A DNA stretch of 64,000 nucleotides, taken from positions 161,085-225,084 of the forward strand of contig CAZSGP010000001.1 of the NCBI GenBank assembly GCA_964606485.1, given 5' to 3'. Below are positions 27,411 to 42,903 of the stretch, piece by piece. How positions within the stretch are numbered: the stretch's first letter is position 1; every line of letters starts with the position of its first letter. Source of the DNA: an uncultured Planctomycetia bacterium. GTDB taxonomy: Bacteria; Omnitrophota; Gorgyraeia; 2-02-FULL-51-18. The position numbers were made by a program, and so were the translations under genes. The notes beneath the pieces were generated by a model, which did no database searches, was not told the origin of the DNA, and worked only from the letters and a program-made list of their open reading frames with translations.

Positions 27411-27481
27411 TCAGAGATCCCTAAGACCGTATTTTATGGGTAGGGTATTTATCGGGTTTCACTGGCCACCTGGCGATTAAG

Positions 27482-28195
27482 ATGAAACTGTCCATTATTA
27501 TTCCCACGTATAACGAAGAAATGACGATTGAGGAGCTTGTTTCCTTGGTGCAAAGCGTCAAGTATCCCGTGGAGTATGAAATTATTATCGTGGATGACGC
27601 TTCGATCGACCGCACATTCGAGAGGGAGATTATGCTAAAGCTCAGGGATCAATCCGAGCAAATCCGAATTTTTAAAAATCAAATCAACCGCGGTAAAGGT
27701 TTTTCGGTGCGCAAAGGGATTCGAAGGGCCAAGGGCGACATCATCATCGTTCAAGACGCTGATCGCGAGTACGATCCGCGAGAAATTCCAAAACTGATCG
27801 AGCCGATCTTGAAAGGAGCCGAGCAGGTTGTGTATGGCAGTCGATTTATGACTTCTTCTCGTCCGAGGGGGATGGCATTTGCGAATCGATTTGCGAATCA
27901 GTTTTTGACGATGCTGACCAATTGGATGTTTGGTTTAAAGCTGACGGATATGGAAACGTGCTACAAGGCGATTCGAGCAGATTTGTTAAAAAGTCTACCG
28001 CTCCAAGAAAATCGATTTGCGTTTGAGCCGGAAATCACCGGGCTACTTGCGCTTAAGCATGTTCCGATTATGGAGATGCCGATTTCTTATTCGGGAAGAA
28101 CTTCAAAAGAAGGAAAAAAGATTAAAGCGGTTGATTTTTTATTTGCGATATGGGCGCTGGTCCGGTGCAGGTTTTGGAGCGGGTTAGGAGATTAG
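27482..28195 (+). CDS. GT2 polyprenyl-phosphate sugar synthase (DPM1/ArnC-like), second copy
   Basis: MKLSIIIPTYNEEMTIEE, IIVQDADREYDP (DxD). Confidence 0.75.
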   Translation: MKLSIIIPTYNEEMTIEELVSLVQSVKYPVEYEIIIVDDASIDRTFEREIMLKLRDQSEQIRIFKNQINRGKGFSVRKGIRRAKGDIIIVQDADREYDPREIPKLIEPILKGAEQVVYGSRFMTSSRPRGMAFANRFANQFLTMLTNWMFGLKLTDMETCYKAIRADLLKSLPLQENRFAFEPEITGLLALKHVPIMEMPISYSGRTSKEGKKIKAVDFLFAIWALVRCRFWSGLGD

Positions 28196-30576: not shown

Positions 30577-30597
30577 AGCTCTCCTCATCCGAGGATC

Positions 30598-30625
30598 TTG
30601 ACAATTGTTAACAAATGAATAGAAT
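30598..30625 (+). promoter_or_regulatory. Sigma70-like promoter TTGACA-16-TAGAAT with palindromic operator (ACAATTGT / TTGTTAACAA) in the spacer, upstream of the ABC operon
   Basis: Read directly: TTGACA at 30598-30603, TAGAAT at 30620-30625, perfect palindrome TTGTTAACAA at 30605-30614. It sits in a 62-nt gap after about 30 kb of gap-less genes. Confidence 0.5.
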
Positions 30626-30638
30626 AGTCTAGAAATCT

Positions 30639-31586
30639 ATGGTTGAAGCCAAGAATCTCTCTATGTTTTATGGCCCCACCAAGGCGCTCGACTCGGTCTC
30701 GTTTCGCGTGGCTGAGAACGAAGTGGTTGGTCTTTTGGGTCCGAATGGCGCAGGCAAGACTACGATTATGCGCATCTTGACCACTTTTATTTATCCCACC
30801 AGCGGAACGGCGTCGGTCTGCGGCATCGATGTCACCAATAACCCCATTCAAGCGCGTCAAAATATTGGTTATCTCCCAGAGTCGCCTCCCTTATATATGG
30901 ATATGCGAGTTGATGAATTCATCGATTTTGTCGGGCGCGCCCGCGGTTTAAGCGGTCGAAAACTGGCTGAACGTAAGGACTGGGGCGTGGAAGCGTGCGG
31001 GGTAAAGCCGGTTTGGAAGCATCAAATGAGCGAGTTGTCGCTTGGTTTTCGCCAGCGCGTCGGTATTTTTCAAGCGCTGATTCACGATCCCAAAGTGGTA
31101 ATTTTGGACGAACCCACCTCAGGTCTTGACCCTATTCAAATTATTGGTGTGCGCAACCTTATTCGGGATCTTGCCAAAACTAAGACTGTTTTATTTTCGA
31201 CACACATTCTCCAGGAAGCCTCTGCGGTTTCCCAACGCCTTTTTATTATTAATCAAGGAAAGATTGTGGCTCAAGGAACTACCGCGGAACTTCAAGGCGG
31301 CGCAAAAAAAGAAGAGCTAATTTATCTTTCAGCTGATGCCCCGAAGGCGGATTTGGAAAATGCGCTAGCGGCCCTCAAACCTGTGAAGCGGGCCGTGTTC
31401 GTGGATACTTATCGCGGGGCACCCCGGTTTTCAATTTCAGTTTCTTCATTTGAAGAGGCGGCTCGGGAAATTTCAAACGTTTGTCATGAGCGTAAGTGGC
31501 TCGTGAAGGAATTTTCGTCGCATGAAGCCTCTCTAGAGGAAGTGTTTGTCGAATTTTTTAAACGTTCGAAAGGCAAGGTCGAGTAG
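30639..31586 (+). CDS. ABC transporter ATP-binding protein (ABC-2/GldA-like)
   Basis: Walker A LLGPNGAGKTTIM, signature LSLGFRQRV, Walker B VVILDEPTSGLDP. Confidence 0.85.
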   Translation: MVEAKNLSMFYGPTKALDSVSFRVAENEVVGLLGPNGAGKTTIMRILTTFIYPTSGTASVCGIDVTNNPIQARQNIGYLPESPPLYMDMRVDEFIDFVGRARGLSGRKLAERKDWGVEACGVKPVWKHQMSELSLGFRQRVGIFQALIHDPKVVILDEPTSGLDPIQIIGVRNLIRDLAKTKTVLFSTHILQEASAVSQRLFIINQGKIVAQGTTAELQGGAKKEELIYLSADAPKADLENALAALKPVKRAVFVDTYRGAPRFSISVSSFEEAAREISNVCHERKWLVKEFSSHEASLEEVFVEFFKRSKGKVE

Positions 31587-31589
31587 ACA

Positions 31590-34037
31590 ATGCGTCATTT
31601 TTGGACCATTTTTAGACGGGAACTCGGAGCGTATTTCAATTCTTCGATCGCCGTTATTTTCGTCATTGTATTTACCGTTTTAAACAACGGACTTTTCATG
31701 CTCCAGTTTTTCCAAATTGGAAAAGCCGACATGAGAATGTTTTTTAATTTCCTTCCTTATTCGCTCGTTGTATTTATCCCGGCGATTTCCATGCGTCTGT
31801 GGGCCGAGGAAAAAAGAACGAGCACGTTCGAGCTTCTCCTGACTTTTCCGATGCGGCCGGGTGAGCTTGTGCTCGGCAAATACATGGCGAGCCTAGTTTT
31901 TTATATTTTTACGCTTCTATCCACCGTGATGGTGCCGATCATGATTCAAATGCTTGGGCAAGCGGATCCAGGCCCGATTCTAGGGGGGTATTTTGGCGCA
32001 TTTTTAGCGGGAGCCTTGTTTCTGGCTATCGGAATTTTTATATCCGGTCTTTGCAAGGACCAGATTGTTGCATTTATTTTGTCGATGATTGTTTCATTCA
32101 CGCTGTTTCTTGTGGGCCTTGATTCAGTGGCGCTTTTCTTTGATGGTTGGATTTCCGGGTTTGGCACGCTGATTAAAAATACAATTGGCATGACCGGACA
32201 TGTGGCGGGTTTAAGCCGCGGAGTGCTGGACACGAAAGACGTGCTCTACTTCTTGATTTTAATTGGTGTGTTTTTATTTCTCAACGGTCTTTCTTTGGAA
32301 GGCCGCATGAAACCGAAAGCCAAAGTTGTTTTCTCGACGGCCGTGTTCGTGGGTCTTTTGTGCGCGGTGCTTGCGTCTTGGCTTTTGCAGGATGTGAATC
32401 TTGGTCGGTTTGATTTAACACAAGATAAGTCCTACACCATTTCCGATGTTTCGCTTAAAGTGCTTAAGAATTTAAAAGTGCCCGTGCAGGTAAAGCTTTA
32501 TGTCTCGCCGGTAGAGAGCATGCCGACGATCCTGAAGACACTGGAACAGCAAGTGTCAGATAAGCTTTCTGAAATGCGCGCTGCTTCCGACGGCAAACTT
32601 AAGTTCCGCGTGATTCATTTAGAGCCGCTCGACGCCAAAGACGAAGAAGTTCGAAAGAATCTGCAGGAGCAGGGTGTCGCTCCGTTTCAAGTGGAGTCTA
32701 TCCAAAAAGACGAAGTCGGCGTGAAGCTTATTTACTCGACACTTGTGATCGAGTATAAAGAAAAGCCTTCGGAAATCATCCCTCGAATTGTCCCGCAAAC
32801 GCTTCAGACGTTGGAGTACCAGCTTCTATCGCGCATTTATAAAATGACGCAGGAAGACAAGCCTAGAGTTGCTATTTATGCACCGGTGAAGAATGAAGAG
32901 CTCTCGCCGGAACTGAGTCAACTGCTTGGTGCTGCCGGCGTGAAAGATCAAAAAGACTACGAGGATGATTTTAAAACAGCCTCGCTTTTAGTGAAGAACA
33001 ACGGTTATGAAACCAAGCGCGTGGCCCTCACCGCGTCGGATTTGATTCCGGAGAAAACGACGACGCTCGTGGTTTTGAATCCTGGGACGCTGAATGAGCG
33101 CCAGCGCTATGAAATCAGCAAATTTTTGTATCAGGGTGGGCATGTGGTGGTGGCCGCTCAAGGGTTTGAATTTGGTTATAAGCGCGAGGAGTCAGGGGTT
33201 GAAGCCGAGCCCAAAAAGCAAAGTCTCTCCGATTTAAACGCGCTTCTTGAAAAATGGGGCGTGAAAGTCAGCGAAGATATTTTGTGCGACAAGGAATCGG
33301 AAGTTATTTCGATCACCACCGGCCAGACGATTGGGCCATTTGCGCTTGAGATGCCCGTAAAGTTCCCTAATCAAATCGTGATCCGGGAATCGACGATCAA
33401 TAAGACTTCTGCTTTTACCGACAGGCTCCCATCGCTTTTTTATCTCTGGGGTTCGGCGCTTGAGCTTTCGAATGATGCGCTTTCTCAGTCGGGACTTAAG
33501 TCCACCGTGCTTTTCACCTCTAGCGCCAATAGCTGGAAAATGCCCAACGATGGACACACGAATTTAAGTGAGAAAAATAGCAATCCACCGGCTGAAACAA
33601 AGGGGCTTTATCCGCTCGCGGTTCTCCTGGAAGGAAAATTTTCAAGCGCTTTTACCGGTAAAGTGCCCGCATGGCCGGCGACCGATGGACAGGAAGCTGC
33701 GAAAATCGAAGACATTCAACTCGGAGAGCAGAAGCCGGGCAAACTGATCGTCGTGGGTTGCTACAAAACATTCTCGGAAGAATCGATTCAAAATCCCGGC
33801 AATATTAATTTCTATGCCAATATCATCGACGGACTTACGATGGGCGAGGACCTAATCGCGATCCGCTCGAAGTCGGGCGTGATCCGAGACATTAAGCGCG
33901 TTTCCAATGCGGAAAAAATTGGTTACCGTTTTTTTGCGGTATTCCTATTGCCGCTTATTTTGCTCATCCTCACCTTTATTAAAGTGTTTTTACGCAAAAA
34001 AGAAAAAGAGTTTTACCTTAAAGCATCTCAAGTATGA
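31590..34037 (+). CDS. ABC-2 family permease fused to a large GldG-like extracytoplasmic auxiliary domain (GldF-GldG-type fusion)
   Basis: N-terminal ~240 aa has 6 TM helices (ABC-2 permease). It is followed by a ~550-aa soluble region and a terminal TM (LLPLILLILTF), as in GldG-type ABC auxiliary proteins. The family assignment is from architecture, not a searched match. Confidence 0.55.
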   Translation: MRHFWTIFRRELGAYFNSSIAVIFVIVFTVLNNGLFMLQFFQIGKADMRMFFNFLPYSLVVFIPAISMRLWAEEKRTSTFELLLTFPMRPGELVLGKYMASLVFYIFTLLSTVMVPIMIQMLGQADPGPILGGYFGAFLAGALFLAIGIFISGLCKDQIVAFILSMIVSFTLFLVGLDSVALFFDGWISGFGTLIKNTIGMTGHVAGLSRGVLDTKDVLYFLILIGVFLFLNGLSLEGRMKPKAKVVFSTAVFVGLLCAVLASWLLQDVNLGRFDLTQDKSYTISDVSLKVLKNLKVPVQVKLYVSPVESMPTILKTLEQQVSDKLSEMRAASDGKLKFRVIHLEPLDAKDEEVRKNLQEQGVAPFQVESIQKDEVGVKLIYSTLVIEYKEKPSEIIPRIVPQTLQTLEYQLLSRIYKMTQEDKPRVAIYAPVKNEELSPELSQLLGAAGVKDQKDYEDDFKTASLLVKNNGYETKRVALTASDLIPEKTTTLVVLNPGTLNERQRYEISKFLYQGGHVVVAAQGFEFGYKREESGVEAEPKKQSLSDLNALLEKWGVKVSEDILCDKESEVISITTGQTIGPFALEMPVKFPNQIVIRESTINKTSAFTDRLPSLFYLWGSALELSNDALSQSGLKSTVLFTSSANSWKMPNDGHTNLSEKNSNPPAETKGLYPLAVLLEGKFSSAFTGKVPAWPATDGQEAAKIEDIQLGEQKPGKLIVVGCYKTFSEESIQNPGNINFYANIIDGLTMGEDLIAIRSKSGVIRDIKRVSNAEKIGYRFFAVFLLPLILLILTFIKVFLRKKEKEFYLKASQV

Positions 34038-35059
34038 AAATTCAAAAACTAATTGGACTTATTTTTCTGCTGGCTCTGCTCGTTGTCGGCGTTGTTGTGA
34101 AATCAAATCACGACCGCGCAGAGCGCGTGTCTATGGAAGCAAAGTCTGTGGAAGTGGTAACCTTCAATAAGGAGTTGGAATTTTCGGCGGTGCGCAAGAT
34201 TACCGTGACGAAGGGCTTGGATACAACTTCTCAAATTACGATGCTCAAGAATGACCAAAATGCATGGACGATGCCGACTCATTTTGGAGCGGGTGCCCGC
34301 AAGTCGTTGGCCGAAGAGCTGATCAAAAAATTAACGGCTCTAAAAGGGGAGCTTCGATCCGATTCGGATGGAGTGCTGGTTGACTATAAGATCGACGATT
34401 CCCAAGGGCTTCATGTGGTGCTTGAAAACGCATCGGGGAAGGTCTTGACCCACACGGTGCTCAGCTTAGAGCGCCCAGGGCGCTCCGGAAATTTTGTTCG
34501 AACCACCCAAGGCCCCACCGTGATTGTCTCGAAAGAAGATATTTTGATGATTCTTGGCTTTTACTCAAAAGACTCGAAACTTGATCCTAAAAATTTCATG
34601 GATTTAAAAGTGGCAAACTTTGACGCTTCCAAGGTTAAGCGCCTAGAGCTCGTTCAACCCGATTCCAAGTTTGGGGCGCTGACTCTCGTTCAGTCTGGGT
34701 CCGGGGCAGCAGCCAAATGGGCTTTTGAGCCGGTCACAAGCGATGAGATTGACCCATCCAAAATGAGCGAGTTCCTGTCCAATGCCTCGAGCGTCTATGC
34801 TATGGATGCGCTAGACCCCGCGGGGACTTCCTACGGTTTTTCCGCAAAGCCATGGATACGCGTTACCGGAGAAGACCAAGGCAAGCCTTTTGAAATCTCT
34901 TACACGCTTGGCAAGAAAGTGGATGCCGACAAATCCATTTATCTCAAAGTACTTCCCGCCGGAAATGTGTACTCAGTGAGCGAAGGAAATCTCGAATACC
35001 TCTCCAAAAAGGACAAGGTTTTTTTTATTAAGCCTGAGTCCACCGAAGCTAAAAAATAA
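34034..35059 (+). CDS. N-terminally anchored extracytoplasmic protein, DUF4340-like accessory of GldG-type ABC systems (tentative)
   Basis: Single N-terminal TM (LIGLIFLLALLVVGVVV), followed by a beta-rich domain with no catalytic motifs. The call rests on the position after the GldG-like gene. Confidence 0.3.
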   Translation: MKIQKLIGLIFLLALLVVGVVVKSNHDRAERVSMEAKSVEVVTFNKELEFSAVRKITVTKGLDTTSQITMLKNDQNAWTMPTHFGAGARKSLAEELIKKLTALKGELRSDSDGVLVDYKIDDSQGLHVVLENASGKVLTHTVLSLERPGRSGNFVRTTQGPTVIVSKEDILMILGFYSKDSKLDPKNFMDLKVANFDASKVKRLELVQPDSKFGALTLVQSGSGAAAKWAFEPVTSDEIDPSKMSEFLSNASSVYAMDALDPAGTSYGFSAKPWIRVTGEDQGKPFEISYTLGKKVDADKSIYLKVLPAGNVYSVSEGNLEYLSKKDKVFFIKPESTEAKK

Positions 35060-35086
35060 GCTCCTCGTAACACCCATTTCTTTTTA

Positions 35087-35115
35087 TTGACAGGTCTAAG
35101 CGCATTTGATATATT
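35087..35115 (+). promoter_or_regulatory. Consensus sigma70-like promoter TTGACA-17-TATATT
   Basis: TTGACA 35087-35092 and TATATT 35110-35115, inside a 136-nt intergenic gap. Confidence 0.5.
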
Positions 35116-35125
35116 TTCTGTACTT

Positions 35126-35139
35126 CCAGTAAGTACTGG
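35126..35139. promoter_or_regulatory. Inverted repeat CCAGTA-AG-TACTGG just downstream of the -10, candidate operator for the adjacent HTH protein
   Basis: Perfect 6-2-6 inverted repeat read directly at 35126-35139 (it contains the AGTACT palindrome). Sits at roughly +5 to +18 relative to the predicted start site. Confidence 0.35.
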
Positions 35140-35195
35140 ATATACAAGGATAGCAGTAATCATCAAACATTTGAGAATTATAAAAATCAAAGTAC

Positions 35196-35450
35196 ATGCC
35201 TGAAAAAAACGGCTCGCTCCTAACGGCTCAGGAAATATCCAAAAAATTTAAGGTGGCATATCCCACCATTAATCACTACACCGATTTGGGATTTCTCCAG
35301 ATTGTGAAGCGTCAGGGTAACCGCCGCATGTATGATGAGAGCGATGTGAAGAAACGCCTCGAAACCATCTCAGCCCTTGCCAATGAAGGCTACCCTTTAA
35401 GACTAATCCGTAAAAAGCTACTTGTAGATGGAGGGGGTGTGGAGCTATGA
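35196..35450 (+). CDS. Small MerR-like helix-turn-helix DNA-binding protein (84 aa)
   Basis: LTAQEISKKFKVAYPTINHYTDLGFLQIVKRQGNRRMYDESDV is a MerR/excisionase-type HTH (the 'T...I..Y...GLL....R...G.R.Y' pattern). ATGA overlap with the downstream ATPase gene. Confidence 0.5.
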   Translation: MPEKNGSLLTAQEISKKFKVAYPTINHYTDLGFLQIVKRQGNRRMYDESDVKKRLETISALANEGYPLRLIRKKLLVDGGGVEL

Positions 35451-36319
35451 GCTACTATCGCATCTTGGGCTTTGAAAAAGAGCCGTTCTCAACCAGCCCC
35501 GATCCGGAATTTTTCTACTCTTCGCGCGAACATGAGCGCGCACTCACCAATGTCTTGATTGAGCTTCGCTTAAAGCGGGGTCTGAGCGTGGTGCTGGGCG
35601 ATGTGGGCACCGGAAAGACCACACTGTCTCGTAAGCTCGTGCAGGATCTGAAAAACCGCGAAGACTGCTTGTTCCACATTGTCTTAGACCCTTCCTTTGA
35701 GGACCGCACACTTTTTTTAAGATCGCTCGTGCGGAATTTTGGAGCAGCCCCCGAAGCCGAAGCCCAGAAAATGGACGGAACCGCACTCCGTGAAGCATTT
35801 GAGCGCTTTCTCTTTCAAAAAGGGGTGGTGGAAAACCGCACCGTGATTCTTGTGATTGACGAAGCGCAGATGCTTGATCCGGTGACACTTGAAAGCCTGA
35901 GGCTTTTACTCAATTACGAAACCAATCAATTTAAATTGCTTCAGCTTGTGCTGCTCGGGCAGACCGAGCTTTTAGGCACGATTAAAGCGATCCCTAATTT
36001 TTTAGACCGGATTAGCTTTAAGTCGACGCTGAATCCCCTGGATTACAACGAAATGAAGGAAATGATTTTCTTTCGCATTTTGCAAGCCGGGTACAAGGCG
36101 AAAATGGATTTATTTTTAGAAGAGGCTCTGCGGGAAATTTACCAGCACACACAAGGGTACCCGAGACAGGTGACGATGCTTTGTCACCGCGCGCTCAAAG
36201 AGATGCTGATGACGAAGAAAATGGCAGTAGACTTGCAAATTATCGAAACGCTTATCGAAAGTGAGGTAGAGTCCGGATGGCACAGGAGCCAGGGCTTACT
36301 CCAGAAAAACAATTACTAA
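35447..36319 (+). CDS. ExeA/GspA/MshM-like AAA+ ATPase (secretin-associated)
   Basis: Walker A VVLGDVGTGKTTLSRKL, Walker B VILVIDEAQMLD, LVLLGQTEL. The family's characteristic N-terminus YYRILGFEKEPFSTSPDPEFFY is present. Confidence 0.75.
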   Translation: MSYYRILGFEKEPFSTSPDPEFFYSSREHERALTNVLIELRLKRGLSVVLGDVGTGKTTLSRKLVQDLKNREDCLFHIVLDPSFEDRTLFLRSLVRNFGAAPEAEAQKMDGTALREAFERFLFQKGVVENRTVILVIDEAQMLDPVTLESLRLLLNYETNQFKLLQLVLLGQTELLGTIKAIPNFLDRISFKSTLNPLDYNEMKEMIFFRILQAGYKAKMDLFLEEALREIYQHTQGYPRQVTMLCHRALKEMLMTKKMAVDLQIIETLIESEVESGWHRSQGLLQKNNY

Positions 36320-36990
36320 ATCTGATTGAGAACGGTCAGAAAGCTGAGACCGGCACAGGCACGGGTGTGCCCGGAGCGCCGGCCGCGGCTCAAACGAAGA
36401 CCGCTGCTCGGTCCGGACGTTTTTCTTTGGGAGCTTTGCGGGGCGCGGTGCTTGGAAGATTTTCATTCTTTAAGCGCACGACGACGAAGAAGATTTCAAA
36501 ATCAAAAATTCGCCTGAGCCTCGGACTGGCGAATAAGTTTTTAGCGGCCGCCGCAGTGGTGTTGTTTTTTTACGTAGCGTCCGACGTGACTTTTTCTATG
36601 ATGGAACTCGGCAAGGCGCCGAACTTACTGTTTCAGGATGGAAAAGCACAGACTCCAAGTGCGGCTGGACAGGTTTCTCCTTTAAGAGACCAAGCTTATT
36701 ATTCGCAAAAAATATCCTCACGGGATATTTTTAAGGGAGAGGCAGAAAAAAGGGAAAAGAAAAAGGAAGCAGCTGCGCCGCTGGCTGATGCCGGGGAAAA
36801 ATTTAAGAACCTTTCACTTGTCGGAATTTCGTGGTCGAGCAATCCGGATGCGATCATTGAGGACAAGGACCGACAGAAGACTTTTTTTGTGAAGCGCGGA
36901 CAGATGGTGGGGGCGGATATCAAGGTAGAGTCTATTTTAAAAGACCGGGTGATCTTAAGCTTTGACGGCGAGGAATTTGAATTAAAATGA
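36277..36990 (+). CDS. Membrane-anchored periplasmic protein with PilP/GspC-like C-terminal beta domain (candidate secretin-docking component)
   Basis: Single TM (LAAAAVVLFFYVASDV). The C-terminus FFVKRGQMVGADIKVESILKDRVILSFDGEEFEL resembles the PilP / GspC-HR secretin-binding domain. ATGA overlap with the secretin gene. Confidence 0.3.
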   Translation: MAQEPGLTPEKQLLNLIENGQKAETGTGTGVPGAPAAAQTKTAARSGRFSLGALRGAVLGRFSFFKRTTTKKISKSKIRLSLGLANKFLAAAAVVLFFYVASDVTFSMMELGKAPNLLFQDGKAQTPSAAGQVSPLRDQAYYSQKISSRDIFKGEAEKREKKKEAAAPLADAGEKFKNLSLVGISWSSNPDAIIEDKDRQKTFFVKRGQMVGADIKVESILKDRVILSFDGEEFELK

Positions 36991-38786
36991 TTCCAAAAAC
37001 ACGCGATGGAAAATGGGTATTGGCACTACGGGTTATCGTTTTAAGCTTCATTATTTTCTTATTGCCGATTTCTGACCGGCCGACGCCAAAAGCGATTGCG
37101 GCGGATGAAGAGGCGGCGAGTTCGGAGTCTCAGGATCAGTCATCTCCCACCGAAGAGCCCACAGCTCAAGATGTTTCATCCGATGCGCCTCTAACCCCGC
37201 TTTCTGAACAGCAGACACCCGCAGACCAATCCATTCAGGCAGGCTCCGCTGGGCTTGATGAAAAAGTGTCGCTCGATCTAAGAAACATCGACGTGACGGA
37301 CGCGCTCCGGTTTTTGGCTCAAAAAGCGGGTTTGAATCTCGTCATTTCAAAATCCGTCACCGGCCGCGTTCAACTGCTTCTCAACAACGTACCCGTGCGG
37401 GACGTGATGGACCTTATTATGATCACGGGCCAACTCGCCTATGAAAAAAGAGGGGACATCTATTACATTATGACTGAAGCGGAATTCAAAGAACGCTTTG
37501 GGCGAAAATTTTCGGACACCCGCCAAGTCAAAGTGTTTCGTTTGAAATACGCTGTGCCGGACCAGGCTTTTTCACTGTTCGAAATTTTAAAGAGCGAAAT
37601 CGGTCGTTTGCTGGTGGACCCTGAAACGGGAACCGTGCTCGTCATGGATACGCAGGAAAACATTGACCGTATGCAGAGGGCGCTTGAAGGACTTGAACAA
37701 AAGCGCCAAATAAAAGTATTCGATTTAAAGTATGCCAAAGCCTTGGATGTGGAAGCGCGTCTCAAAACACAGCTGGACGCTAAAAAGGTGGGGCTTGTGA
37801 GTTCTGATGAGCGCACCAACCAAGTGATTGTTGAAACGATCAGCGGACGAATGGAAGATGTGGAAGCGCTGATCGCGGATCTGGATCAAAAAACGCGCGA
37901 AGTTTCCATTGATGCAAAAATCGTTAAAGTTACCTTGAGCGACGACTTTAATGCGGAGATTCAGTGGGAAGGACTGGCTTCCCGAGTCGCCAAATACGGC
38001 ACTCAATATTTTTCCAATCACCCGTTTGCGCCGGTGGTTCGCACGAATCGTACGCAGGTTGATAATTTTACGAATATTCAACCAACGGCCAATCCCGCGG
38101 CGGGGGTGAAGAGCACATTGACTGAGAATCTATTTCTCGGGTTTATTGATAATGACGATGCGTTCGAGCTTTTAATCAACTTCCTAAAGACTATTGGGAA
38201 AACTAAAATTTTATCCAATCCAAAAATTACTGTGACCAACAATCAGGAAGCCAAGATTCACGTCGGTGAAAAACAGGCGTACGTGACCACCACAACGACG
38301 ACGGGTCAAAACACCACGACGACCGCCGAATCCGTGACCTTCATCGATATTGGTATTCAATTAGCAGTGACCCCAACGATTAACGCGGATGATTATGTGA
38401 CGATGAAAGTGAAGCCCGAAATTTCAAGCGTCTCAACATTTCTAATTACCCCCAGCGGAAACAAAATTCCGATTATTGATAGCTCCACCGCGGAAACCAA
38501 TGTCATGGTTAAAAATGGAACCTCGATCGTCATTGGGGGTCTTCGAAAGGATGAAAAGACTGAAACCCGGAAGAAGATTCCACTGCTGGGCGATATTCCT
38601 ATTCTCGGGAAGCCCTTTAACTCGTTTAACACGACGAATGAGCGCTCCGAGCTCCTGATTGTGATTACGCCAAACATTGTCCAGGGGGACACGCTGGTTA
38701 GCGAAGGACGACCTGTGGGAGAAAAACCGTTTTTGCCTTATACCGACTATTCTGATTATAATAGCCCCATGAAGGTGAGAAAATGA
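36987..38786 (+). CDS. Secretin (GspD/PilQ/MshL family outer-membrane channel)
   Basis: Signal/anchor WVLALRVIVLSFIIFLLP. The N-terminal region LDLRNIDVTDALRFLAQKAGLNLVISKSVTGRV is N0/secretin-N like. The C-terminal secretin domain reads VMVKNGTSIVIGGLRKDEKTETRKKIPLLGDIPILGKPFNSFNTTNERSELLIVITPNIV. Confidence 0.85.
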   Translation: MIPKTRDGKWVLALRVIVLSFIIFLLPISDRPTPKAIAADEEAASSESQDQSSPTEEPTAQDVSSDAPLTPLSEQQTPADQSIQAGSAGLDEKVSLDLRNIDVTDALRFLAQKAGLNLVISKSVTGRVQLLLNNVPVRDVMDLIMITGQLAYEKRGDIYYIMTEAEFKERFGRKFSDTRQVKVFRLKYAVPDQAFSLFEILKSEIGRLLVDPETGTVLVMDTQENIDRMQRALEGLEQKRQIKVFDLKYAKALDVEARLKTQLDAKKVGLVSSDERTNQVIVETISGRMEDVEALIADLDQKTREVSIDAKIVKVTLSDDFNAEIQWEGLASRVAKYGTQYFSNHPFAPVVRTNRTQVDNFTNIQPTANPAAGVKSTLTENLFLGFIDNDDAFELLINFLKTIGKTKILSNPKITVTNNQEAKIHVGEKQAYVTTTTTTGQNTTTTAESVTFIDIGIQLAVTPTINADDYVTMKVKPEISSVSTFLITPSGNKIPIIDSSTAETNVMVKNGTSIVIGGLRKDEKTETRKKIPLLGDIPILGKPFNSFNTTNERSELLIVITPNIVQGDTLVSEGRPVGEKPFLPYTDYSDYNSPMKVRK

Positions 38787-39925
38787 ACCCAGCTATTCCG
38801 GAACCGGAGATTCCCATCAAGGCCGCCAAGCCCAGGAAAACTCTGCCCCCCATTAAATTGCTCGACCCTCTTACGCTGCTCGTGCTGGCCCTCGGGATTT
38901 CCGTGAGCTTAAATTTATTCGTCCCGTACTTTTTAATTAAAAAAGGCGCGTTGGGATCTGCCGAGCTTAGGCAAGACCACACCAAGCTTAAAAAAAATTA
39001 TGAAGAGCTGCAGAATAAAAAAAATGAGGTTGAAGCTGATCGCAATAACATTTTAGCGCAGACAAAAATTCTCTTGTCTGAGAAGTCCAAATTTTCAGAA
39101 ACTCAAACCGAGCTTGAGGAAGCCAAAAAAAGCAACGGGATTTTGATGTCTCAAAAAGTCAAACTGCTTTCGAGAAGCGAGGAGCTAGAGTCCCGCAGCG
39201 AGGAAATGTCTCAAAATTACAGCCGCTTACAGTCTAATTATTTAGACCTGCAGGCTCAACACGAGACTCTGCAAACGGAAAATATTGAATTGAAGGTTAA
39301 GCTGAATCGGTCGGTTGAAACCTCGCCTCAGTATTCCAAATTGAGCATTGAGCGGAATAATTTGGTTAAGGAGAATAAAAAGCAAAGCGATCAAATTAAA
39401 TCTCTGACCGATCAAACAAAGAAGATTCAGGAGCGTTTGGCAAAATTGGCCGGACGGGAGGGCCAGCTCTCCAAGCAAATACAGGCCCTTAATAAAACCG
39501 TGCGCGATCTCAAATCAGAAAAAGCTAAACTTGAAAAAGCTAACCAAAATGTGAATCGAATCGTGGCCGAGGGGCCGGCGCACTTCAAGGATATGGCCAA
39601 TCAAAACAAGAACCTCATCAAAGAAACTTCCACTATGCACTACAATATGGGTGTATTTTTTACTCAGAAAAAAGAATACGACCGGGCGCTTACGGAGTTT
39701 CAGCGGGCGCTAGACTTTGATCCGACAAATGCAAAAGTGTTGTACAATTTAGGCTACCTGTGTGCAGAACATTTTGAAAATCACGAAAAGGCGGTTGAGT
39801 ATTTTAAGCGGTATTTGCAATTAAGCCCCAGCTCGAAAGAGTCGGAGGCTATTAAGAGCTACGTGTTGGTTCGGCAGGCCTATACGGGACCTGAAAGATT
39901 TAAGGATATGAAGAAAGAGTTTTAA
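38783..39925 (+). CDS. N-anchored coiled-coil protein with C-terminal TPR repeats (MshN/PilF-like candidate)
   Basis: TM LLDPLTLLVLALGISVSL, then ~230 aa of heptad-rich sequence (K/E/L/Q), then TPR-like YNMGVFFTQKKEYDRALTEFQRALDFDPTNAKVLYNLGYL... ATGA overlap with the secretin gene. Confidence 0.55.
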   Translation: MNPAIPEPEIPIKAAKPRKTLPPIKLLDPLTLLVLALGISVSLNLFVPYFLIKKGALGSAELRQDHTKLKKNYEELQNKKNEVEADRNNILAQTKILLSEKSKFSETQTELEEAKKSNGILMSQKVKLLSRSEELESRSEEMSQNYSRLQSNYLDLQAQHETLQTENIELKVKLNRSVETSPQYSKLSIERNNLVKENKKQSDQIKSLTDQTKKIQERLAKLAGREGQLSKQIQALNKTVRDLKSEKAKLEKANQNVNRIVAEGPAHFKDMANQNKNLIKETSTMHYNMGVFFTQKKEYDRALTEFQRALDFDPTNAKVLYNLGYLCAEHFENHEKAVEYFKRYLQLSPSSKESEAIKSYVLVRQAYTGPERFKDMKKEF

Positions 39926-39946
39926 CTAAGGTAAACGGAGGATGGA

Positions 39947-40537
39947 ATGAAGAAGCAGACTGTTGTTATTTTGGGGTTGGGATTGCTGGTTTCAGTGTGC
40001 CTAAGCACCGCGCAAGCGGCTGATTCTAAAAGCGATTCTAAAATTGAAAAAAAGTTGGCCGAAAACCAAGCCAAAAGAAAAGCCGAGTTGAAAGACACAG
40101 AGTGGAAGGTGACCTTTTATTCCAATAAACCGACGGATAAAGACGCGGAAAATGGATCACTTGTCTTCTCCGCCGAAACGATGACATTCAATGGTTTTAA
40201 TAAAGTAGATCTTGGGACCATTGGTTATACGCTGACGGCCTATGCGGACAATGACAAGGGAATGCTTGAAACCTATAAGCCCACAAAGGATGGAAATATT
40301 TCGTTGCGGGCTGATTGGCAAGGACAGATCATGAATGGTGTTATCAGCGAGCAGAAAAATGGTGGTAAGGATGTAAAGACTTACCGCTTCACCAGCGTGA
40401 ATCAGGTTTCGCCTTTAGCGAATCAAGATGAATCAAAAAAGGAGTCTTTGGAAGCGGCGGCTCCGGTAGATGCGGCGCTCCCAGTAATGGCATCAACTGA
40501 AAAAGCGGTTGAAAAATCCGAAAAGAAGAAGCGCTGA
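39947..40537 (+). CDS. Small secreted protein (signal peptide + ~100-aa TEWKV-type beta domain), unknown function
   Basis: Signal peptide MKKQTVVILGLGLLVSVCLSTAQA and a strong SD (GGAGGA). The domain core DTEWKVTFYS...ADWQGQIMNGVISEQ...KTYRFTS is shared with the C-terminus of the next gene. Confidence 0.5.
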   Translation: MKKQTVVILGLGLLVSVCLSTAQAADSKSDSKIEKKLAENQAKRKAELKDTEWKVTFYSNKPTDKDAENGSLVFSAETMTFNGFNKVDLGTIGYTLTAYADNDKGMLETYKPTKDGNISLRADWQGQIMNGVISEQKNGGKDVKTYRFTSVNQVSPLANQDESKKESLEAAAPVDAALPVMASTEKAVEKSEKKKR

Positions 40538-40564
40538 TCTTCTATCGTATTGAGATTTCTGTAA

Positions 40565-40598
40565 ACAAGGGGGTCTTTCAAGGACCCCCTTGTTTTTT
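40565..40598 (+). terminator. Rho-independent terminator
   Basis: ACAAGGGGGTC-tttcaag-GACCCCCTTGT followed by TTTTTT (11-bp GC-rich stem, 7-nt loop, U-run), 28 nt after the stop at 40537. Confidence 0.8.
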
Positions 40599-40609
40599 AA
40601 TATCCAAAA

Positions 40610-40638
40610 TTGACACCGCTGTATGTCCGCACTATGAT
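40610..40638 (+). promoter_or_regulatory. Sigma70-like promoter TTGACA-17-TATGAT
   Basis: TTGACA 40610-40615, TATGAT 40633-40638, 36 nt upstream of the ATG at 40674. Confidence 0.5.
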
Positions 40639-40673
40639 AGCCCTGTGGTAAATATTGCGACCCTCAGAGACTG

Positions 40674-41909
40674 ATGCCAAGACCGCCTCGTATAGAGCTG
40701 GAAGGCGCCGTTAATTTTGTTACTTCCAGAGGAATAAACAACCAAGAAATTTTCAAAGACAAGTCCGACTTTGCTACATATTTAGAACTGGTCAAAAAAT
40801 ACAAAGACCAGCACCGCTTTAAACTTTTTGCTTATCTTTTGCTGCCTGAAAAAATCATGCTCTTGATTGAGTCCGGAGCAGGCGCCACAATTTCCGAAAT
40901 CATGCATGACCTCAACTCGCTTTACACCAAATACTTTAATGGACGCTATGGCCGTAAGGGTCATTTATTTGAAGCGCGTTTTCGTTCGGCGCTTGTCGAA
41001 AAGGCGGTGTGCTTGCCCGAGATTACGCGGTATTTGCACCGGCAGGCCCCCGATTTTTCAAATTACCTTTTTTCAACATACTCATTTTATGTTAAGGCGA
41101 TTTCAGGAACCGGCGCGATCGAGGCGATCAACGCAGAGCTTAATCTCGCCGAAGAAATTGGGGAGGCCTCCGCTATTTTTAAATCAAATTTCGGTCAAGC
41201 CAGTTATGAAGCCTATTGCGAACAGGCCACTTCCGATCAAATGAAGGAACTTGAAAAGAACCTCCGCAGTTCCAAAGTCTTTGGATCGGAAGCGTTTAAA
41301 GTGAGGGTCGAACATGAGATAGAACATCGCCGCACTCATTTGCAGGAAAAGGAGTTGGAAGCCGAGGAGGTTAAAGCCAAGGTCAAGCGTAGAACCGTTT
41401 ACTTGTGGTTAATCGGATCGCTGGTGCTGCTTGCCGGAAGTTTATCGATGTATCTTTACACGACAAAAAAAGCCGTGGAAACGCAGTACCGTAATTTGCT
41501 CACACTCAAAGAGTCAAATTTTGCTGAGCGCACAAAGTTTGAAAACCAGAGCCCGCTGGGTTTGAATGATCTGGAAGGGACTGAATGGAAGGTTGAACTC
41601 GTTTCGCCCCAAGGCTCTACGCCAGATGTCTTGCATTTTGAGGGGGGGCGGTTTTATTCGGATCACTTCGCGAAGCTAGGGTTCCGGGACACCAGCTATT
41701 TTCTAATTCCACAAGGCAACCGGAAGGTGCTTTGGCAGGCGGCCCAATCTTCCTCCAAGGGGGATAGTCTAAATTGGCAAGGGACCTGGCAGGGGGACGC
41801 CATGAAGGGCGACCTTAATTTTGTAATTTCTAACCAATCCGCTCAAACCTACTCTTTCTATAGTAAAGAGTGGTCATACGCCACAGCGCTCGTCGCGCAA
41901 AATAGTTAA
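40674..41909 (+). CDS. Fusion protein: N-terminal inactivated IS200/Y1-transposase-like (COG1943) domain, then coiled coil, a TM helix, and a C-terminal TEWKV-type extracytoplasmic domain
   Basis: Residues 1-120 match the Y1_Tnp fold pattern (AVNFVTSRG..., LFAYLLLPEKIMLLIE, YTKYFNGRYGRKGHLFEARFRSALVE), but the HuH histidines are replaced: EKIMLLIE where N-H-V-H-LLIE is expected. TM VYLWLIGSLVLLAGSLSMYLY. C-terminal domain GTEWKVELVS...LNWQGTWQGDAMKGDLNFVISNQ...QTYSFYS. Confidence 0.55.
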   Translation: MPRPPRIELEGAVNFVTSRGINNQEIFKDKSDFATYLELVKKYKDQHRFKLFAYLLLPEKIMLLIESGAGATISEIMHDLNSLYTKYFNGRYGRKGHLFEARFRSALVEKAVCLPEITRYLHRQAPDFSNYLFSTYSFYVKAISGTGAIEAINAELNLAEEIGEASAIFKSNFGQASYEAYCEQATSDQMKELEKNLRSSKVFGSEAFKVRVEHEIEHRRTHLQEKELEAEEVKAKVKRRTVYLWLIGSLVLLAGSLSMYLYTTKKAVETQYRNLLTLKESNFAERTKFENQSPLGLNDLEGTEWKVELVSPQGSTPDVLHFEGGRFYSDHFAKLGFRDTSYFLIPQGNRKVLWQAAQSSSKGDSLNWQGTWQGDAMKGDLNFVISNQSAQTYSFYSKEWSYATALVAQNS

Positions 41910-41997
41910 TCCACCAAAAATTTAATTAAATCTATATATTATATTTACTAACAAAATTGATAATTTAAATTCGTTTTCATATTAAATATTTAAGCTA

Positions 41998-42026
41998 TTG
42001 ACAAAGGAGTTAACACAATGTAATCT
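41998..42026 (+). promoter_or_regulatory. Candidate promoter TTGACA-17-TAATCT inside an AT-rich 238-nt intergenic region
   Basis: TTGACA 41998-42003. The -10 is weak. Region 41910-42000 is about 80% A+T with A/T tracts (UP-element-like). Confidence 0.3.
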
Positions 42027-42147
42027 CTTAGTAGTGGAATTTGATCTTTGATACTGGTGCTAATAGTTGGCAATCGCTGGGAGTGGTATGCGCGGTTGCT
42101 GATTTTTTTGATAAAAGAATCAAAGTGCCAGGCACTAAGGGCTGAAA

Positions 42148-42903
42148 ATGACAAAAAAATCAAAGAAAGTGAATGTTAAACGTAAAAAATTAACAAACGA
42201 AGAGAGAATTTTTCAAGACTCTCTCGTTCGTAGTGCGTGGCGTCGCTATCGTGTCAATAGTGCCGCATATATTTTTGCCTCCCTAGTTCTTCTAATGAGT
42301 TTTTCCGCATACGCAGAAACCGAAGCCACTAAAGTTGCGAAGCCTGTGCCAAGCGCTAAAGCGCCATCTTCTCTTGCTAGTAAAGAGGGGGAGGCGAAGT
42401 CAGACACCACGGCCAAGAAAGCAGATCTTGCACCAGCAAAAAAAATCAAAAAAAATAGAGACGTGAGAGAGCCTTTCTCAAAATTTAAACTTCCGGATGT
42501 AAACGAAGCGGATGACAAGGAGCCAAGCACCTCCAAATATTTAAAAGGCCGGATCTCGACGATCACCGCTTACGGGATGGGAATTGTCTATGGTGGCGAT
42601 CCGACCATCGGACAGTTGGAATCCTGGAATAATTTTAATAGTAAGACCAAGATCGACGGATTTAAAAAATTCACCGATCTAAAAGAAGGGGACACCGTCG
42701 AAATAAACTACAAGCAAACGATTAAAACCCATAAAAGGATATTGGCAAGAGTTACGCTGGTTCACAAAATGACTAAGGAAGAAAGAGCGGCTGAAGAAAA
42801 GGCTTTGATGGATACGCCGGATGAACCCGTGGTTCCGGAGCCAGTCGCGGCAGTTAAACCCGTTTCAAAAGGAACGACCAATGGCGCAGGCAAAGCACTT
42901 TAA
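42148..42903 (+). CDS. Lys-rich signal-anchored/secreted protein, unknown function; 3' end overlaps the giant gene's start
   Basis: Hydrophobic segment AAYIFASLVLLMSFSAYA followed by a K/A/E-rich low-complexity stretch and a ~110-aa globular C-terminus. The stop at 42901-42903 is 20 nt after the ATG of the giant ORF. Confidence 0.4.
   Translation: MTKKSKKVNVKRKKLTNEERIFQDSLVRSAWRRYRVNSAAYIFASLVLLMSFSAYAETEATKVAKPVPSAKAPSSLASKEGEAKSDTTAKKADLAPAKKIKKNRDVREPFSKFKLPDVNEADDKEPSTSKYLKGRISTITAYGMGIVYGGDPTIGQLESWNNFNSKTKIDGFKKFTDLKEGDTVEINYKQTIKTHKRILARVTLVHKMTKEERAAEEKALMDTPDEPVVPEPVAAVKPVSKGTTNGAGKAL

Follow-up and report, generated by a model that had tools for sequence, protein, structure and literature searches.

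A predicted membrane-anchored, catalytically dead relative of IS200/REP transposases is a companion of giant secreted-protein genes in Omnitrophota

Results

Gene organization of the locus

The DNA analysed here, referred to below as the window, is a stretch of 64,000 nucleotides (64 kb) from an Omnitrophota genome (GCA_964606485.1, contig CAZSGP010000001.1, positions 161,085 to 225,084). Its central part carries a secretin module, a gene labelled as a transposase in the databases (Y1-TM in the following), a gene for a small secreted protein and the beginning of a giant gene. The features identified are as follows:

35087-35115: promoter-like site before the secretin module (11 of 12 consensus matches)
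35196-35450 (+): MerR-family regulator, first gene of the secretin module (Pfam MerR_1, E=2e-11); the same gene heads the module in two of the related loci, L001 and L002
35447-36319 (+): ExeA/MshM-like AAA ATPase of the secretin module (Pfam AAA_22, E=1e-21; TIGR03015, 174.6 bits, below its cutoff), syntenic in about half of the related loci
36277-36990 (+): GspC/GspB-like inner-membrane protein (Pfam T2SSC, E=1e-11; T2SSB, E=3e-5), TM segment near residue 88
36987-38786 (+): secretin of the PilQ/GspD/MshL type (Pfam Secretin, E=2e-48, and Secretin_N; TIGR02515, 270 bits)
38783-39925 (+): TM, coiled-coil and TPR protein, MshN/PilW-like (TPR families, E=1e-11), TM segment near residue 30
39947-40537 (+): secreted 196-aa protein with a signal-peptide-like N-terminus; residues ~43-156 are a beta-barrel domain paralogous to the C-terminus of the 411-aa protein
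40563-40595 (+): intrinsic terminator closing the secretin module (15-bp stem, 7 GC pairs, T-run)
40610-40638 (+): sigma-70-like promoter of the Y1-TM gene, TTGACA-17-TATGAT (11 of 12 matches)
40674-41909 (+): Y1-TM gene, 411 aa
40674-41054 (+): Y1/HuH-like core of Y1-TM, residues 1-127
41055-41378 (+): helical cytoplasmic tail domain, residues 128-235, with conserved S135, G204 and F208, ending in a long charged helix that leads to the membrane
41394-41459 (+): single transmembrane helix, residues 241-262
41568-41879 (+): periplasmic 8-stranded up-and-down beta-barrel, residues 299-402, the 'TEWKV' domain
41995-42147 (+): remnant of the family's operon leader, with a promoter-like block (TTGACA at 41999), a relic of the terminator U-tract (42094-42110) and one copy of an 11-mer
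42125-42135 (+): the 11-mer, GTGCCAGGCAC, the only copy in the window, 13 nt before the ATG at 42148
42148-42903 (+): small secreted protein of 251 aa with a signal peptide, a low-complexity linker and a conserved C-terminal domain of about 85 aa
42881-64000 (+): giant ORF with a signal peptide, open to the end of the window (more than 7039 aa)

The frame of the giant ORF is open from 42809 to the window end, and no Pfam domain was found in its 7039 aa. No Pfam hit was obtained for the small secreted protein either. Both ORFs of the preliminary description, the 196-aa and the 411-aa one, exist as described there, and its observation on the 411-aa protein was confirmed. Only one copy of the Y1 domain is present in the window.

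Domain structure of the 411-aa protein

A Pfam search of the N-terminus had been named in advance as a check on the Y1 assignment, and it gave the expected match: Y1_Tnp (PF01797) matches residues 24-124 at E=7e-7 and 29.8 bits, above the gathering score of 23 bits. The AlphaFold2 model (pLDDT 89.2) has as its best PDB match by Foldseek 4er8_A, the E. coli REP-associated tyrosine transposase bound to a REP hairpin (E=1.4e-5, TM 0.66 on the target), followed by IS200, IS608 and ISDra2 TnpA at E=1e-4 to 1e-5. A profile search of PDB sequences with the family alignment found nothing relevant, the best hits being MTIP proteins at E about 0.3, so that only the fold search linked the N-domain to RAYT and IS200.

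Intact HuH and Tyr motifs together with flanking subterminal hairpins were the findings that, as laid down beforehand, would have pointed to a live IS200-family element. The HuH position reads K60-I61-M62 ('PEKIMLLIE'), so both histidines are gone, and the only hairpin nearby is the terminator of the upstream operon. A Tyr (Y120), not seen in the preliminary description, does sit at the catalytic-Tyr column and aligns with the catalytic Tyr of the sister clade (AYIHLNP). The column is not conserved in the clade of the window protein, being His in 41 of 62 sequences and Tyr in only 5, and the presence of Y120 therefore does not settle whether a catalytic tyrosine has been kept.

A single hydrophobic segment was found at residues 241-262 (Kyte-Doolittle maximum 1.75 at residue 241), and a hydrophobic block is present in all homologues. 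In the model the segment is flanked by long helices at 206-251 and 258-288; whether these form a true coiled coil was not examined. The C-terminal domain (about residues 299-402) is modelled as an 8-stranded antiparallel beta-barrel with pLDDT above 90. Pfam and NCBIfam have no model for this barrel, and its fold matches are generic, with 2-15% identity, and say nothing about its partner.

The proposed paralogy of the barrel with the 196-aa protein would have failed if the two domains had shown no significant similarity. BLASTP gave E=4e-5 with 26% identity, and hhalign of the family profile against a profile of 31 equivalent secreted paralogues, collected across the related loci, gave a probability of 99.95% and E=3e-38. 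The paralogues carry signal-peptide-like hydrophobic N-termini, which places the barrel in the periplasm; these N-termini were judged by eye, the hydropathy scan having been run on the window's 196-aa protein only. A word-index search for homologues with the 196-aa protein returned only the protein itself, and with the barrel alignment only 7 proteins, since the word index is too coarse for this divergent domain. An exhaustive HMMER search was needed and gave 1787 representatives.

A family with two clades

The family comprises 178 homologues, more than 100 of them full length (97-99% coverage, 30-48% identity), with source labels naming Candidatus Omnitrophota. Two clades of the same architecture were distinguished. 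In the clade of the window protein (clade A) 0 of 62 sequences have intact HuH plus Tyr, whereas in the sister clade (clade B) 40 of 46 do, with the motifs NH(F/L)H and Y(I/M)HLNP. 'Inactivated', as the protein had been called, thus holds for this protein and its clade, but the family did not start out dead. The Y1 core is nevertheless the best-conserved part of the protein in both clades, with 62% mean identity within clade A and 56% to clade B, against 42% and 28% for the barrel. Residues Y84, T85, K86, N89, G96 and R102 are invariant in both clades. On the NCBIfam REP_Tyr_transpos model (NF047646, cutoff 80 bits) the window protein scores 37.5 bits, clade-A relatives score 35-45 and clade-B proteins 69-82, and only one of the latter, P0075, passes.

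Association with giant genes

The context of the gene was missed in the preliminary description. Of 61 related genome loci with at least 3 kb of downstream DNA, 58 have an ORF of at least 1000 aa, or one that runs off the locus end, within 4.5 kb, and in 46 of them it starts within 1.5 kb. In most related loci the N-terminus of the downstream giant ORF is homologous to that of the window. Between the two genes a small ORF of 140-260 aa typically starts 0-7 nt after the Y1-TM stop; one such ORF was recovered from each of 61 loci, and a consensus signature is shared by these ORFs. The position of Y1-TM is syntenic in 80 genome loci, and the gene order is conserved across the phylum. The unit often lies directly behind a secretin module that ends with secreted paralogues of the barrel, although about half of the loci lack this module within 10 kb upstream. 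Short variants of the protein lack the barrel altogether yet keep the position, the riboswitch described below and the giant gene.

A riboswitch leader and a strand-specific 11-mer

In relatives, Y1-TM is usually the first gene after a c-di-GMP-I riboswitch. Hits to RF01051 or RF03167 at the Rfam gathering score were found in 4 of 7 loci tested. Our own covariance model finds the element in 73 of 81 related loci, nearly always just upstream and usually 100-350 nt before the ATG. It is followed by a terminator and by 1-5 copies of the 11-mer. The window has no Rfam hit at the gathering score or at E<=10, and alignment of its leader remnant to the leaders of L001 and two further related loci, L010 and L012, shows a gap of about 95 nt over the aptamer. 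The aptamer has been deleted here, the 11-mer sits after the gene, and the gene has its own promoter, at a position where relatives have the riboswitch leader. The promoter and the strong terminator pointed out in the preliminary description are real but are a peculiarity of this genome and not a family trait. In the window and in the related loci L013 and L016 the gene lies outside the leader-controlled unit.

The leaders of 65 of the 81 loci carry 91 plus-strand and 2 minus-strand copies of the 11-mer, against 9 and 7 in the other 1.23 Mb. The central base is asymmetric, which argues against a symmetric double-stranded operator, and the motif persists in the window although the aptamer is deleted. 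The barrel-less short variants carry a non-palindromic variant, (G/A)TGCCACGCA(C/T), which weakens a simple hairpin model, although the difference may only reflect phylogeny. Two other readings of the motif were rejected. The reverse complement contains TGGCAC and was read by eye as a sigma-54 promoter, but the spacing to any TTGC does not fit. Pairing of the 11-mer with the 3' arm of the riboswitch terminator was rejected as its main role, since the motif lies downstream of the U-tract, and the short-variant class changes the motif to CCACGCA while its terminator arms stay CCAGGCA/TGCCTGG.

Tandem GTGCCAGGCAC arrays are widespread in metagenomes. They were expected to lead mostly to Y1-TM genes, but only 1 of 120 array loci did, 91 of the 120 have no Y1 gene on the (mostly short) contig, and none of the first 100 had the riboswitch. 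The motif is therefore far more widespread than this operon and could serve some other factor. GTGCCWGGCAC copies flank ordinary cytoplasmic Y1 genes in inverted orientation in several unrelated metagenome contigs. Four plasmid-borne subclass-2.1-like genes lacked GTGCCWGGCAC and instead showed GGGGWSAS-type tandem repeats upstream. Y1 proteins next to GTGCCWGGCAC are not clearly closer to the Omnitrophota core than those next to GGGGWSAS, and no clear signal of co-phylogeny between protein and motif type was found.

Discussion

Relation to known systems

Among the closest known systems are the TIRYT proteins, TnpA-Y1 subclass 2.1 (Di Nocera 2013, PMC3733652; Quentin 2018, PMC6006769). Clade-B members carry the subclass signature NH[YF]H, Y[IV]HLNP and the serine motif after the Tyr helix. 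In the window protein only the serine/aromatic tail (S135, Y139) and the core motifs remain, and by these motifs its membership stays undecided. Both kinds of gene are low-copy and not IS-like, short cognate repeats sit next to the gene, and the N-terminus has the MPRxPR motif. Subclass 2.1 proteins, however, are cytoplasmic, about 240 aa long, and end in a DnaA_C-like or other HTH domain. No Bac_DnaA_C, HTH_23 or HTH_28 hit was found by Pfam in the window protein, which has a TM helix and a beta-barrel instead and has lost HuH. TIRtrons with the GGGGWSAS motif (PMC3733652) are a precedent for cognate repeats, but a TIRtron has terminal inverted repeats on both sides of the gene, whereas in Omnitrophota the copies lie upstream only and in one orientation, and the gene is embedded in a conserved host operon.

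E. coli RAYT/TnpA-REP (PDB 4ER8), a monomeric Y1 domain that recognises a DNA hairpin, is the best structural match for residues ~1-160, at 18% identity. The window protein differs in that no REPs or other inverted-repeat family flank its gene, HuH is absent and it is membrane-anchored. The locus itself is of the kind described for Omnitrophota giant genes with an upstream type II/IV-like secretion locus (West-Roberts et al. 2023, bioRxiv 10.1101/2023.11.21.568195): a secretin-containing module, a peptidyl-prolyl isomerase in some relatives, then a giant gene, with a c-di-GMP link suggested through PilZ and GGDEF. The word transposase does not occur in that paper, and a literature search for Omnitrophota together with riboswitch returned only unrelated papers, although the paper itself was not searched for that term. 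The Y1-TM gene, the small secreted protein and the riboswitch leader are additions to that picture.

Membrane-bound one-component regulators of the ToxR/CadC type share a cytoplasmic nucleic-acid-binding domain, one TM helix and a periplasmic domain, and act on a nearby operon. This is a resemblance of design only, since ToxR-type proteins use an OmpR-like winged helix, and the cytoplasmic part here is a Y1 fold plus a helical tail for which DNA binding is not demonstrated. TldR, a nuclease-dead TnpB domesticated as a transcription factor (PMC10705468), represents the same concept: a protein from an IS200/IS605-type element loses catalysis and is retained at a fixed host locus, probably for sequence-specific nucleic-acid binding. 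It is, however, a different protein (TnpB rather than TnpA-Y1), RNA-guided and cytoplasmic, and its function has been shown experimentally.

Possible function

The interpretation given in the preliminary description is partly supported. It was right in proposing a domesticated, non-transposase Y1 domain, a topology of cytoplasmic Y1, TM and extracytoplasmic domain, and the paralogy of the latter with the neighbouring secreted protein. It was also right that the architecture is not a described family, and the TnpA-Y1 classification paper never mentions membrane or transmembrane.

In our view the 411-aa protein is a domesticated, non-mobile descendant of a RAYT/TIRYT-type tyrosine (HuH) transposase, whose cytoplasmic Y1 domain has lost the metal-binding histidines but is under strong purifying selection, and which is tethered by one TM helix to a periplasmic barrel. 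It belongs to an Omnitrophota-wide family that is a fixed accessory of giant-gene loci, with the typical unit being a promoter, a c-di-GMP-I riboswitch, a terminator, 1-5 copies of AAAGTGCCAGGCAC, Y1-TM, a small secreted protein and the giant secreted protein. Most likely, at a probability of about 0.5, it works as a membrane-tethered nucleic-acid-binding adaptor or regulator of giant-gene expression and secretion. The Y1 domain would bind, without cutting, the single-stranded form (DNA or RNA) of the leader motif, and the barrel would contact the secretin module, either through its free paralogue or through a shared partner, so that expression of the giant gene would be coupled to the state or position of its export machinery. 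What the analysis demonstrates is the architecture, the loss of catalytic residues alongside a conserved core, the single copy in the window, the synteny, the riboswitch, and the conservation and strand bias of the motif; binding of the Y1 domain to the motif, interaction of the barrels and the direction of any regulation are inferences. Since about half of the loci lack a nearby secretin module, coupling to that module cannot be universal in cis. A bolder version, which appears unlikely but would be of great interest if true, is that the Y1 domain grips the single-stranded GTGCCAGGCAC element either on the non-template DNA strand of the transcription bubble, as RfaH reads ops, or on the nascent RNA. 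With the protein fixed in the inner membrane and its barrel docked to the secretin module, the transcribing giant gene would be held under its own export machine. Transcription, translation and secretion of a >7000-aa protein would then be spatially coupled and perhaps protected from premature termination, with c-di-GMP acting as the on-switch in most species.

The main alternative, which we consider less likely, is that the protein is a structural or assembly subunit of the export apparatus, the Y1 fold having been reused as a cytoplasmic protein-protein scaffold comparable to the cytoplasmic domain, TM and periplasmic domain of GspL or PilM-PilN, without a nucleic-acid role and with the leader motif read by some other factor. 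The fixed position between a secretin module and the giant gene, the paralogy of the barrel with secreted proteins of that module, the dispensability of the catalytic residues in clade A and the abundance of motif arrays without Y1 genes would fit this view. However, the residues that stay invariant lie in the Y1 core and not in the barrel, half of the loci have no secretin module nearby, and the complete active site in most clade-B proteins is hard to explain for a pure scaffold. That active site, the near-cutoff REP_Tyr_transpos scores of clade B and the cognate-looking repeats next to the gene could instead be explained by an enzymatically active family, in which a membrane-bound HuH endonuclease nicks, or joins covalently to, the single-stranded leader motif as a DNA-level switch or covalent tether, the window's clade being a derived binder-only, or decaying, version. 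This is improbable, since clade A has lost the motifs completely yet keeps the same synteny, the same motif and a highly conserved core, so that catalysis cannot be essential to the shared function, and since the one-sided, one-orientation motif copies are unlike a TIRtron.

The idea put forward in the preliminary description, a one-component transmembrane signalling or anti-sigma-like device in which the barrel senses a ligand, possibly in competition with the free paralogue, and controls a cytoplasmic output, is similarly improbable. Its anti-sigma part has no support, as no anti-sigma or sigma-factor Pfam or NCBIfam match was found in the protein or in the genes inspected from 22958 to 42903. 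The barrel-less short variants indicate that a ligand-sensing barrel is not essential to the family. A live IS200/IS605-family or TIRtron element that happens to lie here, as the Pfam hit, the database label 'transposase' or RayT and Y120 might suggest, is effectively refuted by the absence of HuH, the fusion to a TM helix and a periplasmic domain, the single copy in the window, the lack of tnpB and subterminal hairpins, and the orthologous position across a whole phylum at 30-48% identity.

If our reading holds, genes annotated as 'transposase' next to giant genes should not be counted as evidence of mobile DNA without checking; a 2026 preprint on giant-gene flanks counts transposase flanks in that way. 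The Y1 (TnpA) transposase of IS200/REP-type elements would then have been domesticated into a membrane protein with a host function, of which we found no report in the literature searched, in parallel to the recent finding that the partner nuclease TnpB has been domesticated into transcription factors. Three conserved parts, the Y1-TM protein, a small secreted protein and a c-di-GMP riboswitch leader, would be added to the poorly understood giant-gene loci of Omnitrophota, offering concrete handles for asking how genes of tens of kilobases are switched on and how their products are exported.

The Y1-TM protein and its secreted neighbour

Both ORFs noted in the preliminary description are real, and they lie among the following features of the window:
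39947-40537 (+), ORF encoding the 196-aa protein with a signal-peptide-like N-terminus
40563-40595 (+), strong terminator
40610-40638 (+), consensus promoter
40674-41909 (+), ORF encoding the 411-aa protein (Y1-TM)
42125-42135 (+), single copy of the 11-mer motif
42148-42903 (+), ORF encoding a 251-aa protein
42881-64000 (+), giant ORF, open to the end of the window

A Y1 transposase domain had been predicted for the N-terminal part of the 411-aa protein, and Pfam indeed places Y1_Tnp at residues 24-124 (E=7e-7, 29.8 bits, above the 23-bit gathering score), whereas the REP-associated tyrosine transposase model of NCBIfam scores 37.5 bits, well below its 80-bit cutoff. An AlphaFold2 model built on 108 homologues was confident (mean pLDDT 89.2), and its N-terminal part matched best the E. 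coli RAYT bound to a REP hairpin (4er8_A, E=1.4e-5), followed by the IS200, IS608 and ISDra2 transposases. An intact HuH motif would have spoken against the proposed inactivation, but the protein reads K60-I61-M62 at this position. There is one hydrophobic segment, residues 241-262, flanked by long helices, and residues ~299-402 are predicted to form an 8-stranded antiparallel beta-barrel. Lack of similarity between the two extracytoplasmic domains had been set in advance as the ground for rejecting their paralogy; however, BLASTP with the 196-aa neighbour gave E=4e-5, and comparison of profile against profile gave a probability of 99.95% and E=3e-38. The signal-peptide-like N-terminus of the 196-aa protein places the barrel in the periplasm and the Y1 domain in the cytoplasm. 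The observation made in the preliminary description is thus confirmed, including the consensus promoter and the strong terminator.

A conserved family with two clades

Whether the same fusion occurs elsewhere had also been posed as a check. The protein has 178 homologues, more than 100 of which cover 97-99% of its length at 30-48% identity, and where a source names them they are called transposase or RayT from Candidatus Omnitrophota. A scan of species-representative genomes returned 80 loci, mostly Omnitrophota MAGs. The alignment splits into two clades. The clade of the window protein (62 sequences, at least 40% identical) never has HuH plus Tyr intact, typical sequences being PDRLELLIE and TRHIH. 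In contrast, the sister clade (46 sequences) has NH(F/L)HLL plus AY(I/M)HLNP in 40 cases, which is the signature given by Quentin et al. (PMC6006769) for TnpA-Y1 subclass 2.1, the TIRYT group, and these proteins score 69-82 bits on the RAYT model. Only half of the family is "dead".

The TM helix and the barrel are shared by both clades. The Y1 core is the best-conserved part of the protein, with a mean identity of 62% within the clade and 56% across clades, against 42% and 28% for the barrel, and residues Y84, T85, K86, N89, G96 and R102 are invariant throughout. The domain is therefore kept by selection for something that does not require catalysis. Tyr120 of the window protein sits at the catalytic column but is a minority state in its clade (5 of 62). 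In the alignment columns of window residues 60, 62 and 120, the two HuH histidines are most often replaced in the dead clade by Arg (45 of 62) and Glu (35 of 62), and the catalytic Tyr by His (41 of 62). This pattern is non-random and could replace the metal site with a salt bridge.

A third, shorter class of 300-350 aa (related loci L057, L058, L061, L067-L072 and L076-L079) keeps the Y1 domain, the tail and the TM helix, but has in place of the barrel a periplasmic helix of about 70 aa carrying the motif EKYRADMVSYQAMQKRLEIEKKK. These short variants still follow a riboswitch and precede a giant ORF, in some loci directly (L057, L058, L061, L078, L079).

Association with giant genes

In the window, the Y1-TM gene is followed by the 251-aa ORF and then by an ORF which starts with a signal peptide (MAQAKHFKAKSFFATSLILAGLCLFFTADAHA), overlaps at its start the end of the 251-aa ORF, and is still open at base 64000, more than 7039 aa later. 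No Pfam domain was found in it. The same order recurs across the phylum: the Y1-TM stop codon is followed at 0-7 nt by a 140-260-aa ORF, and a few nucleotides later by a very long ORF. Of 61 genome loci with at least 3 kb of downstream DNA, 58 have an ORF of at least 1000 aa, or one that runs off the end, within 4.5 kb, and in 46 it starts within 1.5 kb. The N-termini of these ORFs are homologous to that of the giant ORF in the window. The small ORFs, which lie just after Y1-TM in most related loci and one of which was recovered from each of 61 loci, form a conserved family of secreted proteins without a Pfam match, each having a signal peptide, a variable linker and a C-terminal domain of about 85 aa with the signature K..G.v..i...IAi.Y..D..G..E...K....l.eI..GD.V.v.Y.E. 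The true start of the small ORF in the window may lie downstream of 42148, since a basic N-terminal extension precedes the signal peptide.

Upstream, about half of the loci carry the module seen in the window, that is MerR, an ExeA/MshM-like ATPase, a GspC/B-like protein, a secretin, a TPR protein, and one or more secreted barrel paralogues. The first half of the window (1-35059) is a long same-strand run of envelope and polysaccharide genes, including glycosyltransferases of families 1, 2 and 4, a carbamoyltransferase, and an ABC transporter with a GldG-like auxiliary protein and DUF4340, and the GC skew is steadily positive across it. A type II/IV-like secretion locus upstream of Omnitrophota giant genes was described by West-Roberts et al. 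(bioRxiv 10.1101/2023.11.21.568195), whose text does not mention a transposase-like gene. Some MAGs carry two such units at different giant-gene loci, with divergent copies, which is the opposite of insertion-sequence behaviour. In one related locus, L066, two consecutive units of riboswitch plus Y1-TM-like gene (9790-10915 and 12056-13204) lie on one contig, with several minus-strand motif copies around them and no giant ORF within 4.5 kb.

A c-di-GMP riboswitch and a conserved 11-mer in the leader

A scan for hairpins upstream of the gene in relatives showed recurring sequences, which Rfam identified as c-di-GMP-I riboswitch aptamers (RF01051 or RF03167) at gathering score in 4 of 7 loci tested:
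L010, 9789-9873, c-di-GMP-I aptamer (64.2 bits)
L036, 9807-9891, c-di-GMP-I aptamer
L044, 9775-9854, c-di-GMP-I aptamer
L018, 9760-9846, c-di-GMP-I aptamer

A covariance model built from those four, whose E-values are rough, found the element on the coding strand in 73 of 81 loci, usually 100-350 nt before the ATG. The leader has a stereotyped layout: a promoter, the aptamer, a terminator hairpin (CCAGGCA...TGCCTGG plus a U-run), 1-5 copies of (AAA)GTGCCAGGCAC, and a Shine-Dalgarno sequence followed by the ATG. The degenerate form RTGCCA[GC]GCAY occurs 91 times on the coding strand and twice on the other strand in the leaders of 65 of 81 loci, against 9 and 7 times in the remaining 1.23 Mb. 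Since the motif is a near-palindrome, its strand can only be read from the central base. The strict bias argues, by inference, for recognition of a single strand (RNA or ssDNA) and not of a symmetric duplex operator. The short, barrel-less class carries the non-palindromic variant (G/A)TGCCACGCA(C/T). Gene callers start some orthologues (P0085, P0087, P0078, P0100; L004 10001-10055) at the GTG of the motif, where GTG CCA GGC AC translates to VPGT, and so produce spurious N-terminal extensions; the real start is the MPR(L/P)PRI methionine, which follows a Shine-Dalgarno sequence.

The window is the exception, as no riboswitch was detectable in it by Rfam or by our own model. The 11-mer occurs once, at 42125-42135, after the Y1-TM gene and 13 nt before the ATG of the small ORF. 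Alignment showed that window 41990-42150 is the leader of the family with a deletion of about 95 nt that removes the aptamer, while the promoter block, the relic of the U-tract and the 11-mer remain. So in this genome the giant-gene unit has lost c-di-GMP control, and the Y1-TM gene sits just upstream of the leader under its own promoter, which is what the preliminary description had picked up. In the related locus L016 the gene likewise lies upstream of the leader, and in L013 no riboswitch was detected and the only motif copy lies far downstream of the gene. The survival of the exact 11-mer where the aptamer has decayed suggests that the motif has a function of its own tied to the giant-gene unit.

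Possible origin of the 11-mer

A metagenome scan for two copies of the motif 15-45 nt apart returned at least 120 contigs (L085-L204), with GC contents of 40-73% among those inspected, carrying tandem arrays of 2-14 copies. Of these 120, only one had a Y1-TM gene downstream, and none of the first 100 had the riboswitch. The motif is therefore much more widespread than this operon, with tandem arrays in many unrelated metagenome contigs. However, 8 of the 120 contigs (0.6 Mb in total) carry a Y1/RAYT-like ORF, and in five of them motif copies lie within about 200 nt of an ordinary cytoplasmic Y1 gene of subclass-2.1 type. Contigs L107, L108 and L146 have copies on both sides of the gene in opposite orientation, and L090 and L166, where the contig is short, show copies on one side only. 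For comparison, 1.35 Mb of Omnitrophota loci hold 3 additional Y1 ORFs.

Exactly this kind of arrangement was described by Di Nocera et al. (PMC3733652) as TIRtrons, RAYT-like genes flanked by terminal inverted repeats, many sharing GGGGWSAS, some self-complementary and some forming dispersed repeat families. We found GGGGTCAG-type tandem repeats just upstream of four plasmid-borne genes of this subclass. The simplest reading is that GTGCCWGGCAC is another, possibly undescribed, cognate repeat of this transposase subclass, and that the Omnitrophota family kept copies in its leader when it was domesticated. This is suggestive only, because most arrays have no Y1 gene on their (short) contig, no co-phylogeny between protein and motif type was seen, and neither string was found in a bacterial context in the literature that could be searched.

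Interpretation

The interpretation offered in the preliminary description was supported in part: the domesticated domain and the paralogy hold, whereas the proposed ligand-sensing signalling device is unlikely, being weakened by the barrel-less variants and by the absence of any sigma or anti-sigma partner among the genes inspected. A purely structural subunit of the export apparatus is a possible alternative, although we favour it less. It is also unlikely, but conceivable, that the protein is an active HuH enzyme in the sister clade, in which the motifs are retained, and that the present clade is a binder-only derivative. A live mobile element can be all but dismissed. A recent preprint (bioRxiv 10.64898/2026.06.07.730766), which reports 176 complete Omnitrophota genomes, counts 24 "transposase or mobile-DNA" genes flanking giant genes as a sign of mobile cargo; if any of these are the domesticated Y1-TM gene, which was not checked against the gene lists of that study, part of the signal would be an annotation artefact.

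The superfamily is known, and so is the idea of domesticated Y1 transposases (RAYT, TIRYT). What is not described in the papers searched is the fusion to a TM helix and a periplasmic barrel, the phylum-wide association with giant genes and with a c-di-GMP riboswitch, and the loss of catalysis with retention of the core. A reading of low probability, but of great interest, is that the protein is a membrane tether for a transcribing gene.

The analysis itself shows a membrane protein with a cytoplasmic, catalytically disabled but strongly conserved domain of predicted ssDNA-hairpin-binding fold, a periplasmic barrel with free paralogues in the adjacent secretin module, linkage to a giant secreted-protein gene, c-di-GMP riboswitch control in most species, and a strand-specific conserved motif in the leader. 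That the Y1 domain binds this motif, AAAGTGCCAGGCAC, as single-stranded DNA or RNA, and that the barrel contacts the export machinery, is our inference from these data. We put the probability of this explanation at roughly 0.5, a compromise between its two parts, as a domesticated, non-mobile accessory of giant-gene loci is highly probable (about 0.85), while binding to the leader motif is doubtful (about 0.3). In this view, the protein would couple expression of the giant gene to the envelope apparatus, either as a regulator or as a spatial tether.
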